64,000 nt of DNA from Candidatus Azobacteroides sp. (GTDB taxonomy: Bacteria; Bacteroidota; Bacteroidia; Bacteroidales; WRGA01). Below are positions 53,461 through 58,038 of this stretch, piece after piece. The position numbers and the translations under genes are program-made. The DNA lies in assembly GCA_021201815.1 (NCBI GenBank), contig JAJQEC010000083.1:5177-69176 (forward strand). Direction: 5' to 3'. Positions within the stretch are counted from its first letter, which is position 1, and each line of letters opens with the position of its first letter. The notes beneath the pieces were generated by a model, which had not been told where the DNA came from, searched no databases, and saw only the letters and a list, made by a program, of their open reading frames with translations.

Positions 53461-53916
53461 TTATTTTTCTTTTTTGACATGCTTCTTTTTCCTTACCCTT
53501 CTTACTATATAATATGCGCATAATAAGCCTAGTAGAATCATACCCGGATCCGGAAAAGAACCGAAATCAAAAGGTAGAGGGCGTTCATCCCCTCCTATGG
53601 GGTCAACCCAGCCTGTTGCCAGTCTTTCTTCATCTGCTATAATTTTCACTTTATCTTTATCCTCCTTTTTCCTATTAAAACTTTCTTCGTTTTCATTCCT
53701 GTCAGATCTTGAAAAAAACTGATAGGACCCATCTTCTTCTTTCGGAGATGGATCTGAGAATACATTTTCCTTATCTATAAATCCGGCAGGTCCGTCAAAT
53801 AGGTTATCACCGGGTAAAACACTTTTATATTTTTCTCCCGGACAGATGAAAAAGGGAAAGAAAAATAATAGTAAGAACGGAAGTATCCGTTTTCTTTTAT
53901 CGGTATTTTTTTTCAT
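53461..53916 (-). CDS. Small-protein family member S3 (signal peptide, acidic linker, GWVDPIGGD motif, PEP-CTERM-like tail)
   Basis: 151 aa with tail FPDPGMILLGLLCAYYIVRRVRKKK. Confidence 0.65.
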   Translation of the reverse strand: MKKNTDKRKRILPFLLLFFFPFFICPGEKYKSVLPGDNLFDGPAGFIDKENVFSDPSPKEEDGSYQFFSRSDRNENEESFNRKKEDKDKVKIIADEERLATGWVDPIGGDERPLPFDFGSFPDPGMILLGLLCAYYIVRRVRKKKHVKKEK

Positions 53917-54138
53917 GATTGTTTTGTTTTTTCCGTATTCTTAATTAAATCATTATCAGATTCGTTGCTGTTTGCGGTTATTCTGATCACAGGACGAAAA
54001 GGTAACATAGCCTTTTCTTTAGCATTACATTGAAAAATATATCCTATTATTCTTACTTATATGTATTTATTGTTTATTTCTCTTTTTCTATCTTGCCTAT
54101 CCTATTTTCCGGTTTGTCAGGTAATGGCCGGGAATCCG

Positions 54139-54549
54139 TTATTTTGTTTCCTTCTGTTTGATTTTTTTCCTGTGCACAAAATATAATATAGAAAGAGAGG
54201 CGGATATAATAGCGACAGGTACTTTATAGGATCCGAAGGAAAATGTCGGATTGTTTTTGCTAACCGGAACGAACCAATTACTTGTTTTTAATTTTTCCAT
54301 AAACAAGATATCTTCTTTCATATATCTTTCTTCGGTCGGGGTAAGAAGAGAGATATTCTCATCTTCCTTTTGTACGGGATTGAAAGGCTGTGACTTTTCT
54401 TCCTCTATTTGCATCCGGATTAGCTTTTCCAAGAATTTCCTATTGGAAAGAATGTCTTTCTCATTCCATCCCGGAGAAAGCGGAGGAGGAGATAAAAGGG
54501 GCAAAGTCACCAGTATGAGTATTATTGCTAGTGCAAATACATTTCTCAT
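54139..54549 (-). CDS. Small-protein family member S4 (signal peptide, charged linker, NWFVPV motif, TM + HRKKIKQK tail)
   Basis: 136 aa, 57 nt downstream of the 1143-aa gene on the same strand. Confidence 0.6.
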   Translation of the reverse strand: MRNVFALAIILILVTLPLLSPPPLSPGWNEKDILSNRKFLEKLIRMQIEEEKSQPFNPVQKEDENISLLTPTEERYMKEDILFMEKLKTSNWFVPVSKNNPTFSFGSYKVPVAIISASLSILYFVHRKKIKQKETK

Positions 54550-54606
54550 GGCGTTTTTAGTTAATTAGCAGGAGAATAAAATATAACTTGCCCCTACATT
54601 CGGAAT

Positions 54607-57600
54607 TCACTGAACAATCCTAACCGGAAATTTTCGTTGCTGCTTCAAAGAACCGGCGAAAGTAATTTCGCAGATATATATTCCCGGAAACAAGATTATT
54701 TCCTGGGAGAATTGGGAAGCCGGCATGATCTGTTTTTGAAATAATTTATCCCCGTGTATGGTATAGATTGTTACATCTTCCATCGGAAAAGACGCTTGTA
54801 CGGTAAGGTTGTTATTTGCATAGGATACCCGGAAAGGAAAGGATGCCATATTTTCCTGTTCCTCTATAGAAGATGGCATTCCGGCAATATGCAATTCAAA
54901 GCGTTCTTCAAATCCGGGGTCATGGACGAAAGAATATTCTCCTTTTGTAAGCAGATTGGTTTCCTTTTTTAGTTTTCGGTCATACAAGACAAGGTGCCTG
55001 GCAGAAAGTTGTTCCGTATTTATTGCTTTCAGTGTTACCTGAAGTTCCGGCTCACACTTGATGCCGACCGGCAATGTAATATCACTTCCATATACATACT
55101 GAATTTCGTTTTTTGTTTTTCCGTCTGTATCCAATACATACATTTGGGGTACCAGCAGGTTTTCTTCATGATAAATAAACATCTTTTTTGAACTTTCCCC
55201 CTGTTCCTTGTTCAGGGCAAAAGTGACCATCGATTTTTCCCCTTCACTTTCTGCCAGAAGAAACAACACATCTTTCCGGTAAGGGCTTGTGGTATTTTTT
55301 AATTGCAGATCACTGCCCGGCGGACGGGTTACCGACACATTATCGGCCTGAAAAGATAAATTGATAGTAGCACCTGCCCCTGTTGCCGGAGTAATAAAAA
55401 ATGCTTGTAAAGGTGCAATATATTTATCAATTAAAGGGGTGGTGCCTACATTTACATCATATGTTACAAACTGGTGGTTTACGTATAATTTATATATCTC
55501 TCTTATATTGCTGTTATTCCCGGCATAAAGGACATCAAAATCCAGGCTGGAGAGGAACGGATTGCCAACCATTGATTCCTCTGAGCCGCTTACCTGCATC
55601 TGAAACGGATTAACAGGTATATTATTCGCATTCTCAAATATAAACCGGTATCCGTCATCTCCCCGATAAAGAATATCCGGATCTCGTGTGTCAGAGAAAG
55701 GGAAACCGTCTTCTTTGTGGTAAAAATATTTAAAGCTGCTGAATTTATTGGTAGCATCATATTCATGAATCCTATGCAAAGCACTGACTGCTGTATTTTC
55801 GAAATAGGGAAATTCGAATATTCCCTGCAAGCCGTTAAGATTCTTATGATCGCCCTTGCCTAATACATTGGCTTCATAAGGTTCTACCAACACACTGATG
55901 GCATAGTTATAGGCTCCTCCTATCTCGTACCCTGCCGTTGTATTATTAAGTATCCAGCTTCCCTGTAGCTCTCCGGAGTCACCGGTTGTACCGGACGATG
56001 ACTCAAATCCCATCTGGTAGGTAAAAGGATAGCCTCCCAGAGAAAAATCACCGGAAGCAATCTTCTTTAAGGGTGCGGCAAGGGCATACCACCGGTTGCG
56101 TAGCATAGGGATCGCAGAATACGCGTCTCCGTCTGTCTGATAACTGCTTCCGTTATAATATCCGAAATTATATCGAATAAACGCTTTATTATAGGTAAGC
56201 CGGTGTGGCTTGGCTACCTCTCCACCGAAGTGGAAGGTAATTTCATCACAGACAGGATCCTCTTTTATTTCTCCGGCTTGCAGAATGGTGGTTTCAAGAT
56301 CGGGATAACTTCCTGCTGTACCTGGTATATATACTTTATGGCATGCTTCCGGTACAGACATGGAGGTATTGCCATCCGTTAATCTCCAGTTTCCGGGATT
56401 ATTCCAGTTGCTGTCTCCTGCTAAACCTGTCCATATAAAGTCCTGGTCCGTAACTATCACGTTACATTCTGTTGTTAAATTTTTCCCCGAAGAATTTTTC
56501 ACTACCATTCGTATCGTGTGTATGCCGGGAGATAACGCAGCAGTAGTCCAATTTAATGTATTCTGGGGGAGATTCTGTTGTATATTGTTTATATACCAGG
56601 TAATGTACGACTGACTGGTATTAACAGGAACTGTTACTTCTCCTTTTATTTGTAAACCCTTACAGGTATTCAGTCTTTTCCCTTCAAAGTCTTCGTAAGA
56701 TATATTATTGATATACATCTGGCAATCCAGCCGTTTAAAAGTAGCAGATGTAAGATAGTGGTACGATTCGAAAAGGCCTCGTCCGTAACCCCACATAAGA
56801 AGTCCGGTAGGATTCCAGTAGCGGTAATATAGACTGGTATTATTATTCGTTGCTATTATCTGGTTCAGGTAGGAATATCCCGAACGGTGGTCGACCCAGC
56901 CTCCGGAGACATCTGTCCAGGAATTTGTTGCACTATTGTAGCTGCGGGTGAGGTGTTTGTATTCTGTTTTTACCACCAGTTGGGCATAATGTGTTGTGAG
57001 TGCAGTTTCTCCTATCGGTTGGAAAGGAGCGATGGATACCGTATCGGTTACCATCTGTTCCAGCGCCGGCACCCATGCAAGGGATGGATCTCCGCCTCCG
57101 TTGCTTTTTCCAATCATGTAGGTACACACTGCAATAGGCCTGTTAGCAGTAATATATGCTCCCCGGCTTGACGAAGTCGTTGTGATTTCCCTGTACATTC
57201 CTTTATTTAAATAAATAGTTTGCTTACTTCCCGTTTGATACTGTATCGTTACTTCCGTAGGACTTTCAGAAGTAATTATCCTGACTTTTTCTTCTGCCAG
57301 AATAGTAACCGGTACTTGAAATGCCTTTCCCCATTTATCTACTGAAACCAGTTGTTCAAAAAGGCAATCGGAGCCTCCTGCGACAATTCCCGCACTACTG
57401 TTTACGCTGAAGGCAGCTACCGGTTTTGAAGCCCATATATATCTGCCTGTCATATCTGCTTTGTTCACTCCCTTTATATAAAATACTTCTCCGGCATTCA
57501 GCGTGCCTACCAGCTTATTGTCCTGCCTTACCTGCGTGCCATTTTCATTTGCAATTACCAGAATCCCATCCCGGAAATTACTGGTACTCCTGAAATTTCC

Positions 57601-58038
57601 ATGTGAAAAATGATGATATTCGGTACCATAGGTAGAAACCGGAAAAACAGCTGTTGCTTCAGTAGTAGCCTGTTTTTGATTAAGAGCATATACATAGATA
57701 TCTTCCGTAGAAGTAATTTTTAATGTTTTAGTACTTTTACCTGAATTATCGACGCTATGGTAAATATGAGAATCGGTTGTGACAGTTCTTACTTCACCTG
57801 CATTCATATTATATGTTTGTCCTGTTATACCGGGAGTCGTGTAAGTAAATGTCACCTGACATGCTTTAATAGCAATAAGCCGGATTTGTAAACTTTCATT
57901 GGAAACGACATACGAAGCATTTGGACCGAAGGTTACCCAGAAGTCTTTTCCTGCCGAGGTTTTTTGCGCTTGTAGAGTGAGACAGGAACATAATAGAATG
58001 CAGAACAGGTAAAGCGAATATATTGTATGTTTTTTCAT
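54607..58038 (-). CDS. Giant T9SS cargo protein, paralog of 15784-19245
   Basis: 1143 aa. Signal peptide, GKDFWVTFGPN, the 30-aa block RNRWYALAAPLKKIASGDFSLGGYPFTYQM identical to the paralog, and C-terminus VTIYTIHGDKLF...GIYICEITF...KFPVRIVQ. Confidence 0.85.
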   Translation of the reverse strand: MKKHTIYSLYLFCILLCSCLTLQAQKTSAGKDFWVTFGPNASYVVSNESLQIRLIAIKACQVTFTYTTPGITGQTYNMNAGEVRTVTTDSHIYHSVDNSGKSTKTLKITSTEDIYVYALNQKQATTEATAVFPVSTYGTEYHHFSHGNFRSTSNFRDGILVIANENGTQVRQDNKLVGTLNAGEVFYIKGVNKADMTGRYIWASKPVAAFSVNSSAGIVAGGSDCLFEQLVSVDKWGKAFQVPVTILAEEKVRIITSESPTEVTIQYQTGSKQTIYLNKGMYREITTTSSSRGAYITANRPIAVCTYMIGKSNGGGDPSLAWVPALEQMVTDTVSIAPFQPIGETALTTHYAQLVVKTEYKHLTRSYNSATNSWTDVSGGWVDHRSGYSYLNQIIATNNNTSLYYRYWNPTGLLMWGYGRGLFESYHYLTSATFKRLDCQMYINNISYEDFEGKRLNTCKGLQIKGEVTVPVNTSQSYITWYINNIQQNLPQNTLNWTTAALSPGIHTIRMVVKNSSGKNLTTECNVIVTDQDFIWTGLAGDSNWNNPGNWRLTDGNTSMSVPEACHKVYIPGTAGSYPDLETTILQAGEIKEDPVCDEITFHFGGEVAKPHRLTYNKAFIRYNFGYYNGSSYQTDGDAYSAIPMLRNRWYALAAPLKKIASGDFSLGGYPFTYQMGFESSSGTTGDSGELQGSWILNNTTAGYEIGGAYNYAISVLVEPYEANVLGKGDHKNLNGLQGIFEFPYFENTAVSALHRIHEYDATNKFSSFKYFYHKEDGFPFSDTRDPDILYRGDDGYRFIFENANNIPVNPFQMQVSGSEESMVGNPFLSSLDFDVLYAGNNSNIREIYKLYVNHQFVTYDVNVGTTPLIDKYIAPLQAFFITPATGAGATINLSFQADNVSVTRPPGSDLQLKNTTSPYRKDVLFLLAESEGEKSMVTFALNKEQGESSKKMFIYHEENLLVPQMYVLDTDGKTKNEIQYVYGSDITLPVGIKCEPELQVTLKAINTEQLSARHLVLYDRKLKKETNLLTKGEYSFVHDPGFEERFELHIAGMPSSIEEQENMASFPFRVSYANNNLTVQASFPMEDVTIYTIHGDKLFQKQIMPASQFSQEIILFPGIYICEITFAGSLKQQRKFPVRIVQ

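Follow-up and report, generated by a model that had tools for sequence, protein, structure and literature searches.

A family of small, putative inner-membrane proteins encoded behind giant T9SS cargo genes in gut Bacteroidales

Genes for giant T9SS cargo proteins in the 64-kb window (the whole stretch of DNA analyzed here) are followed by genes for small proteins, S1 to S4, which share one architecture and whose linkage to giants is conserved in other genomes. Because this pairing recurs across several genomes, it is probably functional. The explanation that we favor, with a probability of about one in three, is that S1 to S4 represent a lineage-restricted, unnamed family of type I (N-out, C-in) inner-membrane proteins, encoded last in the operons of giant type A cargo and acting as cargo-linked accessory factors.

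A first-pass annotation had placed three minus-strand genes at locus 2, and the ORF check recovers them as described, with the 1143-aa giant 3 followed by S4 after 57 nt and then by S3 after a further 222 nt. Giant and S genes are presumably co-transcribed. The features of this locus and of the two related loci in the window are listed below.

15404-15736, minus strand: S1, 110 aa, beginning 47 nt past giant 1
15784-19245, minus strand: giant 1, 1153 aa, paralogue of giant 3, with PF17517 and TIGR04183 matches
21142-21537, minus strand: S2, 131 aa, candidate S-family member of the APPPNID..STPQKML type, beginning 18 nt past p297
21556-22449, minus strand: p297, 297 aa, T9SS type A CTD protein by Pfam and NCBIfam CTD models
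22488-26828, minus strand: FG-GAP giant, 1446 aa, whose head has Big_9 and FG-GAP domains, with the shared C-terminal half and a weakly matching CTD
53461-53916, minus strand: S3, 151 aa, from ORF, architecture, codon score, AF2 and alignment
54139-54549, minus strand: S4, 136 aa, from ORF, architecture, codon score and alignment
54607-58038, minus strand: giant 3, secreted protein, 1143 aa, from ORF, PF17517, CTD and alignment to its paralogue
54610-54843, minus strand: C-terminal sorting domain (CTD) of giant 3, T9SS type A, approximately residues 1066-1143, TIGR04183 sub-threshold with a matching fold
54859-56448, minus strand: shared C-terminal region of giant 3, approximately residues 531-1060, from alignments with the other giants
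56860-57657, minus strand: IgGFc_binding (PF17517) domain of giant 3, residues 128-393, E 1.2e-35

The IgGFc-binding head proposed for giant 3 is borne out by the PF17517 profile, which scores 123.6 bits against a gathering cut-off of 25.6. The T9SS CTD proposed for the same protein is retained as well, although its own profile score does not carry it, since giant 3 reaches only 14.2 bits with TIGR04183 and the cut-off is 23. We nevertheless read giant 3 as CTD cargo because giant 1, which is 47% identical and aligns with it across the CTD, passes the threshold at 26.1 bits, because the last ~75 residues are the sole confident part of the AF2 model (pLDDT 74-87), and because the PDB folds that these residues match best, 8gl8_D and 8gl6_D (TM 0.80-0.81, rmsd 1.8-1.9 A), are CTDs of RemZ and RemA from T9SS translocon complexes. 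By model and fold search, the terminal 70-80 residues adopt an Ig-like beta-sandwich. Residues 1-24 read as a signal peptide cleaved at LQA/QK (MKKHTIYSLYLFCILLCSCLTLQA/QK). The type A models TIGR04183/PF18962 match p297 and the giants, below threshold in giant 3 and weakly in the FG-GAP giant, and the window has no T9SS component gene.

The pairing of cargo and small protein was originally counted three times in 64 kb. Three loci are indeed present, but S2 lies directly behind p297 and not behind the giant, making this locus a three-gene cassette that runs from the 1446-aa FG-GAP giant through p297, its conserved middle gene, to S2. All three giants of the window possess a C-terminal half of ~600 aa, which is less similar in the FG-GAP giant than in giant 1 and includes the conserved motifs IWTG..D.NW.N..NW, F.GGEVA.P, NRWY.L..PL and GNPF..S.DF. 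No Pfam family matched this region. Giants bearing it differ in their heads, which may be IgGFc-binding, FG-GAP, Big_9 or none recognized. As judged from these alignments, the feature that unites S-partnered cargo is the C-terminal half and not the IgGFc-binding head.

All four S proteins have hydrophobic segments at both the N- and the C-terminus followed by a K/R tail, and a scan of all window ORFs for this architecture recovered S1 to S4, with four other matches, among them the giant itself, CstA, which is a multi-pass transporter, and a 51-aa ORF that overlaps S2 in antisense. In S4, an N-terminal hydrophobic signal and a charged linker precede NWFVP, FSFG, a TM helix and the tail HRKKIKQKETK. 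S3 has a signal peptide, a disordered charged linker, GWVDPIGGD, PFDFG, a TM helix (approximately residues 124-143) and the tail RRVRKKKHVKKEK, and its AF2 model shows disorder over residues 28-77 and one confident helix at the C-terminus. The two motifs first ascribed to all four proteins are less uniform than proposed: W-[FV]-x-P occurs in S1, S3 and S4 but is missing from S2, and [FL]-S-[FL] occurs in S1, S2 and S4 but is FDF in S3. The label "tail-anchored" does not fit either, as every S member has an N-terminal hydrophobic signal and several have canonical A-x-A cleavage sites (SIQA/EE in S1, and SAKA/QQ, NLVA/QD and DAKA/QW elsewhere). From these sequence features, type I bitopic is a better description of the S proteins than strictly tail-anchored. 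The Sec signal peptide, single alpha-helical anchor and basic tail together predict an inner-membrane location, and the tail is consistent with the positive-inside rule.

BLASTP comparisons (S1/S3, E 1.4e-9; S1/S4, E 1e-5; S3/S4, E 1.5e-5) indicate that S1, S3 and S4 are homologous, with S1 the closest relative of S3. The match of S2 to these three is marginal (pairwise E 0.07; hhalign profile E 0.0016, probability 16%), and its weak attachment to them comes through the wider alignment and a common motif pattern. Short conserved motifs run along the mature proteins: [ED]N.F at the N-terminus of the mature chain, an aromatic F[FW]E-like motif in the middle, the acidic patch I..D[DE][DE], [YW].[PD]P[PI]G, and a membrane-adjacent P[LF][GDE]. 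Helix and tail past the basic cluster are also conserved inside subfamilies (RKYTLA, KQTISEG), which suggests that S has a specific membrane or cytoplasmic partner. The first-pass annotation could assign the small proteins to no named family, and S1 to S4 indeed match none in Pfam, NCBIfam or PDB, while none of the 13 members of the S alignment (A6) has a Pfam or NCBIfam match.

In profile searches that covered 5.8 and 1.84 billion sequences, S1 to S4 and two S2-like hypothetical proteins were the only ones returned. Further S-like genes were found by a genome search with the ~600-aa C-terminal half of the window giants as query, and these come from six or more additional Bacteroidales metagenome genomes, several of termite gut origin. 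Upstream DNA could be read at 14 S-like loci (the three in the window plus L080, L086, L177, L178, L181, L213-L217 and L220), and in all 14 a same-strand giant with the shared half lies upstream. The S-like gene is placed directly behind the giant, 3-57 nt on, or behind a ~300-aa T9SS-CTD protein, with gaps in front of it of about 3-60 nt, and in no locus with readable context does one stand apart from a giant. In L178, for example, from a Dysgonamonadaceae MAG, an S-like gene lies 12 nt behind a giant that has an IgGFc head, the shared half and a weakly matching CTD. The proposal of a cargo/partner module hinged on homologues in other genomes, on their linkage to cargo giants and on the lack of a match to any characterized family, and all three hold.

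The S2 orthologue occurs in conserved gene order in two species, where the giants are 69%, the p297 proteins 56% and the S2 proteins 40% identical overall, the last 48 residues of S2 being mostly invariant. The N-terminal part of S is low-complexity and fast-evolving, whereas the C-terminus is conserved. Similarity of the giants' C-terminal halves correlates with that of the S proteins (Spearman 0.71, Mantel p ~5e-4), which fits cassettes that were inherited and duplicated as units. In EPI_MAG_00028, however, similarity among S paralogues (0.74-0.88) far exceeds that among their giants (0.36-0.63), which speaks against each S having co-adapted with its own cargo. Moreover, many giants with the same C-terminal half (L167-L176, L180 and the second L216 giant) have no adjacent S gene, so S is either not generally required or acts in trans, and no S gene accompanies the more distant IgGFc-head giants. 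The pairing is optional.

Several other explanations need to be weighed. That the small ORFs arose by chance in AT-rich DNA downstream of the giants is strongly disfavored, even though they are short and low-complexity, belong to no database family and have coding scores (0.09-0.15) below those of the giants (0.17-0.22). In S1 to S4, as in neighboring real genes, the codon-usage score is positive in the annotated frame and negative in the five others, and paralogues and orthologues show protein-level homology with conserved architecture and gene order. It is conceivable, if doubtful, that the S proteins are real small membrane proteins without a role in secretion of the neighboring cargo, either envelope-stress or regulatory peptides or passengers linked by cassette duplication. 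The many related giants that manage without S, the homogenization of S paralogues in one genome independently of the giants, the narrow distribution of the family and the 222 nt between S4 and S3, which could accommodate a separate promoter, would all suit this account. Yet hitch-hiking alone hardly explains why S-like genes are never found away from giants in readable loci, or why their position is kept behind different heads, in two- and three-gene cassettes and in several genomes.

Alternatively, the C-terminal 45 residues of S (motif, TM helix, basic cluster) might be a new sorting signal of the PEP-CTERM, GlyGly-CTERM or MYXO-CTERM kind, cleaved by a membrane protease or transpeptidase so that a small acidic peptide is released or attached to lipid, glycan or neighboring cargo. 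CTERM signals are defined by a tripartite extreme C-terminus on a protein with an N-terminal signal peptide (PMC11980579, PMC3237569), and the S layout conforms to this grammar, with Pro/Gly-rich signature motifs immediately before the helix, a variable low-complexity N-terminal part set against a conserved C-terminus, and up to eight paralogues in one genome. Known systems (PEP-CTERM/exosortase, GlyGly-CTERM/rhombosortase, MYXO-CTERM/myxosortase) likewise occur as several paralogues per genome. We regard this alternative as unlikely, however, because a CTERM tag is portable across diverse proteins, whereas the profile searches found the S tail on small S-type proteins only, and because S conservation spans the whole mature protein and extends past the basic cluster into the cytoplasmic tail, which is untypical of sorting tails. 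No known CTERM model matched significantly (the best result was a weak match of two of 13 members to the Loki-CTERM model, E 0.11), and the 64-kb window has no sortase-like gene.

If the S proteins are instead cargo-linked inner-membrane factors, they would be exported by Sec, relieved of their signal peptide by signal peptidase I and retained in the inner membrane by the C-terminal helix and Lys/Arg tail. A flexible charged region of 60-100 residues carrying the conserved short motifs would then reach into the periplasm, where it could bind the giant expressed along with it, or p297, on exit from Sec, and either keep the cargo at the membrane or pass it to the T9SS. A bolder version, which we consider improbable, is that S proteins are a new class of T9SS accessory, namely cargo-linked, disordered tethers anchored in the inner membrane that connect the T9SS with the export of giant type A cargo by Sec, for instance if their conserved helix and tail dock on the PorL/PorM motor.

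The arrangement resembles that of PorP/SprF pairs, in which a smaller gene lies a short distance behind that of a large adhesin-like T9SS cargo protein on the same strand, several paralogous copies occur per genome, and some cargo genes are orphans with no adjacent partner. Nevertheless, the partner slot is held by a different and much smaller protein type, as first proposed, with family members of 108-151 aa rather than ~300 aa and no PorP/SprF family match in Pfam or NCBIfam for S1 to S4 or the 13 A6 members. PorP/SprF proteins are outer-membrane beta-barrels that gather type B CTDs at the translocon exit, and type B CTDs are those that use these shuttles (PMC12618676), whereas S proteins combine disorder with a single C-terminal helix and K/R tail, are predicted to be in the inner membrane, and accompany type A cargo, which is generally shuttled by PorV. 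A PorP/SprF-like shuttle role for S is unlikely given its Sec signal peptide, single alpha-helical anchor, basic tail and type A cargo. Like the translocon helpers SkpA and PPI (SprA-PorV-PPI-RemZ-SkpA-SprE complex, PDB 8gl8), S proteins could keep large cargo export-competent between Sec and translocon. Any such resemblance in function is purely speculative. The helpers are soluble, folded, general chaperones, whereas S proteins appear to be membrane-anchored, disordered and tied to particular cargo genes.

To our knowledge, it is poorly understood how very large T9SS substrates are handled on their way from the Sec translocon to the outer-membrane translocon, and the only known cargo-specific T9SS partners are the outer-membrane PorP/SprF shuttles for type B CTDs. 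An S protein in the inner membrane behind giant type A cargo would imply an extra cargo-specific step, and if the tether reading is correct, some type A cargo, like type B, has dedicated partners, here on the inner-membrane side. With a narrow distribution and no cultured host, the system is of limited immediate impact. Three unnamed families are also defined: the S proteins, the middle gene p297 (~300 aa) and the ~600-aa C-terminal half of the giants, which together make up a recurrent surface-protein cassette of termite-gut and other gut Bacteroidales. A point against the favored explanation is that approximately half of the S members carry a Cys close to where the signal peptide ends, and some of them may therefore be lipoproteins.

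According to the first-pass annotation, three genes lie on one strand at this locus, a giant T9SS cargo gene followed by two small ones, and we found the corresponding open reading frames (ORFs) on the minus strand at these coordinates:

54607-58038, minus strand: giant 3, ORF of 1143 aa
54139-54549, minus strand: S4, ORF of 136 aa, starting 57 nt past giant 3
53461-53916, minus strand: S3, ORF of 151 aa, starting 222 nt past S4

The IgGFc-binding-like N-terminal domain ascribed to giant 3 is clear (PF17517 profile match, E 1.2e-35). Its proposed T9SS C-terminal domain (CTD) scores 14.2 bits against TIGR04183, below the 23-bit cut-off, and is backed by three other results. 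Giant 1 (15784-19245), which is 47% identical to giant 3 over the full length, passes the same threshold at 26.1 bits. When the C-terminal 613 residues of giant 3 were modelled with AF2 (mean pLDDT 45, uninformative outside the CTD), confidence was confined to the last ~75 (pLDDT 74-87), and the top PDB fold matches of this model are 8gl8_D and 8gl6_D, the CTDs of RemZ and RemA in T9SS translocon complexes (TM 0.80-0.81, rmsd 1.8-1.9 Å). A PDB sequence search with giant 3 returned no relative.

S3 and S4 resemble two further small proteins of the window, S1 (15404-15736) and S2 (21142-21537), in that all four have a hydrophobic segment at both the N- and the C-terminal end and a Lys/Arg-rich end. 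When every ORF of the window was screened for this architecture, S1-S4 came up together with four further matches, among them a 51-aa ORF antisense over S2, the multi-pass transporter CstA and the giant itself. By BLASTP, S1, S3 and S4 are related (S1/S3, E 1.4e-9; S1/S4, E 1e-5; S3/S4, E 1.5e-5), whereas S2 matches the others marginally (E 0.07). Pfam, NCBIfam and PDB sequence searches with S1-S4 gave no significant match, in keeping with the earlier statement that they could not be assigned to a named family. In the AF2 model of S3 the signal peptide forms a helix, residues 28-77 are disordered, a charged helix is weakly predicted and the C-terminal helix is confident; the model contains no globular domain.

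A fuller pattern emerges when 19 distinct S-like sequences are aligned. It opens with a signal peptide, and several members show a canonical A-x-A site there (SIQA|EE, SAKA|QQ, NLVA|QD, DAKA|QW). The mature N-terminus has the form [ED]N.F, and the middle of the protein carries an F[FW]E-like aromatic motif and an acidic I..D[DE][DE] patch. The motif [YW]-x-[PD]-P-[PI]-G takes the form YAPPPGE.GNPQK in most of the proteins; in S1 and S3 it is W[FV]DPIGGD. A few residues behind P[LF][GDE] lies the C-terminal helix, often Tyr-terminated, then a Lys/Arg cluster and, in some subfamilies, a conserved end (RKYTLA, KQTISEG). Profile-profile comparison of the S1/S3/S4 and S2 types gives a weak match (E 0.0016, probability 16%); judged from these sequences, the two types probably form one family. 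Pfam, NCBIfam and PDB sequence searches with a 13-sequence version of the alignment (A6) gave no significant match, the best match to a sorting domain being Loki-CTERM (E 0.11, two members).

Searches of 5.8 billion clustered proteins and 1.84 billion representatives (the latter without a word index) with a profile of S1-S4 (A1) returned just S1-S4 and two 125-aa hypothetical proteins, P0005 and P0006, from one 'Candidatus Azobacteroides sp.' MAG; in these collections the S1/S3/S4 subtype had no sequence-level match outside the window. Both hypothetical proteins are S2-like (40-41% overall identity), and the last 48 residues of the three are mostly invariant (APPPNID..STPQKML.L, helix, R.xKRKY.LA). 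Their context (loci L080 and L086) is also that of S2, namely an FG-GAP giant, a ~297-aa protein and the small protein. Given this gene order, the identities between window and L080 (giant 69%, 297-aa protein 56%, S2 40%) and the near-invariant end, S2 is a gene that has been retained, its linker evolving fast and its C-terminus under constraint.

With the whole giant as query, an initial scan of genomes reached only distant proteins with IgGFc heads (Paludibacteraceae, Tannerella and others), next to which neither an HMM nor the architecture scan found S-like genes. That result came close to suggesting a pairing confined to this organism; a scan with the C-terminal region that the giants share reversed the picture. 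The FG-GAP giant (1446 aa, 22488-26828) has an unrelated head, and its C-terminal half matches giants 3 and 1 in two segments (E 6e-19 and 1e-14). This shared half, roughly 600 aa long, has no Pfam family over it and did not fold in an AF2 model from a shallow alignment; its motifs include IWTG..D.NW.N..NW, GGEVA.P, NRWY.L..PL and GNPF..S.DF. Many Bacteroidales giants carry it behind differing heads, and a few other Bacteroidota give weak matches. Between the giant and S in the three-gene form of the cassette stands a conserved middle gene, the p297 family (~300 aa, T9SS type A CTD, no other Pfam domain).

Shared half and p297 family, where they occur
54859-56448, 15784-17625 and 22488-24191 in the window, and loci L167-L212: shared half, preceding and including the CTD
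21556-22449, minus strand, in the window; L080 9077-9970; L086 4632-5528; L213-L217 and L220: p297 family, with T9SS type A CTD

The shared-half alignment (A5) found 46 loci in the species-representative genome collection, and local HMMs for the shared half, p297 and the S family, together with the architecture scan, detected S-like genes at several of them.

S-linked giants in other genomes
EPI_MAG_00025 (L177): S-like gene behind the giant, 24-nt gap
Dysgonamonadaceae Fux382_bin49 (L178): S-like gene at 12 nt; giant with IgGFc head, shared half and weak CTD match
EPI_MAG_00010 (L181): S-like gene at 3 nt; giant with Big_9 head
Azobacteroides Mp193P4bin6 (termite gut): three-gene cassettes, two copies
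EPI_MAG_00028: three-gene cassettes, eight copies after an added scan with the S2-like alignment

Wherever upstream DNA was available (14 of 14 S-like loci, four further copies being interrupted by contig ends), a giant with the shared half lies upstream on the same strand. The converse fails: many shared-half giants, some in genomes that also have S-linked ones, are followed by unrelated genes, and there is no S gene behind the giants at L167-L176 (including the closest relatives, 35-37% identity) and L180, nor behind the second of those at L216. A genome scan with A2 and a metagenome scan with A8, which made poor search patterns, added nothing. The S family is unnamed and narrowly distributed, limited to one small set of gut Bacteroidales. 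The conserved cargo/partner module proposed earlier is supported by comparative genomics, the link being to the shared C-terminal half and not to the IgGFc head; likewise, the pairing of giant and small protein does recur, although as a three-gene as well as a two-gene arrangement.

Similarity matrices of the giants' C-terminal halves and of the S proteins are correlated (0.71, Mantel p about 5e-4), which fits the inheritance of cassettes as units. In EPI_MAG_00028 (L215, L216, L217, L220), S paralogues are far more alike (0.74-0.88, normalised BLAST score) than the C-terminal halves of the adjacent giants (0.36-0.63). This difference points to gene conversion or to a tighter constraint on S, and it agrees better with a common cellular partner than with one-to-one co-adaptation with each cargo. 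The window's genome is opposite, with giants at 0.53 and S1 versus S4 at 0.12.

The S genes close the cassettes at the 3' end, tightly linked on the same strand to genes for giant cargo with different heads, and the short gaps point to co-transcription. Our preferred, still tentative reading, to which we give a probability of roughly 35%, is that S is a cargo-linked accessory factor. It would be exported by Sec and its signal peptide cleaved, the C-terminal helix keeping it in the inner membrane and the basic tail facing the cytoplasm, as the positive-inside rule predicts; its flexible periplasmic part would bind the giant or p297 and either retain it at the membrane or pass it to the T9SS. 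The conserved helix and tail end suggest that S has a membrane or cytoplasmic partner. It is somewhat improbable that S is a genuine small membrane protein with a role other than in secretion.

The tripartite layout is also consistent with a new sorting signal of the exosortase, rhombosortase or myxosortase kind at the S C-terminus (PMC11980579, PMC3237569), but the tail does not behave as a portable tag and the protein is conserved over its whole length, and we regard this explanation as improbable. That the small ORFs are not genes is scarcely credible: log-odds scoring of codon usage, trained on the window's long genes, gives each S gene a positive value in the annotated frame and negative values in the other five, and spurious overlapping ORFs score negative too.

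The nearest known arrangement is that of type B CTD cargo and its PorP/SprF shuttle, in which the shuttle gene lies directly downstream and some cargo proteins are orphans (PMC12618676). The two resemble each other in gene layout, whereas S proteins show no match to that family and no ~300-aa barrel, and their cargo has a type A CTD. Since S is predicted to reside in the inner membrane, it would be no functional stand-in for PorP/SprF. Nor is S tail-anchored in the strict sense, because it has a signal peptide.

The DNA around the cassette is ordinary chromosome; elsewhere the window encodes ATP synthase, 2-oxoacid:ferredoxin oxidoreductase, PEPCK, HisRS, GcvH and PurE. The nearest PEPCK in the species-representative collection is 82% identical (a Dysgonamonadaceae MAG), so the source is a Bacteroidales member without a close sequenced relative there. 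An Rfam scan of the window found no match, no convincing inverted repeats suggesting an invertible promoter lie near the locus, and a window scan for sigma-70-type promoters and terminators was uninformative.

Near-identical 31-nt elements (TTTGGTAT..AAAATATTTA.TTAATTTTG) that fit the Bacteroides-type promoter (-33 TTTG / -7 TAnnTTTG) lie at 19834-19864 and 27262-27292 (both minus strand), 596 nt before giant 1 and 441 nt before the FG-GAP giant, and therefore imply long 5' leaders; each is followed by a second short conserved block. The element recurs in L080, about 443 nt before its giant, and is absent before giant 3; it has no Rfam match.

Downstream of the S3 cassette, a 479-aa ORF (51158-52597, minus strand) combines, in one frame, the final ~70 residues of an AcrB-type pump (matching PF00873 at positions 952-1020) and an outer-membrane efflux protein whose own signal peptide begins near residue 84. 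The remainder of AcrB is absent upstream, where the cassette ends (860 nt up to 53460), and two independent Logan assemblies repeat the arrangement; it looks like the scar of an insertion or rearrangement beside the cassette. Just past S3 lies a 97-aa ORF (53093-53386, minus strand) with a basic N-terminus, no family and a coding score near zero, where the Logan assemblies call a 95-aa gene. Separated from giant 3 by 1.6 kb of AT-rich DNA and transcribed away from it, 59681-60655 (plus strand) encodes a 324-aa protein whose N-terminus weakly matches an HTH; we rejected this gene as a common cassette neighbour, its paralogue (45480-46445, plus strand, 27% identity) lying 14 kb off with no giant alongside. 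A 104-aa ORF (61227-61541, plus strand) was likewise rejected as an S member, its weak A1 match (E 0.004) stemming from composition and a TM helix being absent; it encodes a signal peptide and then an E/K/R/Q-rich low-complexity stretch, and has the top coding score among the small ORFs tested.
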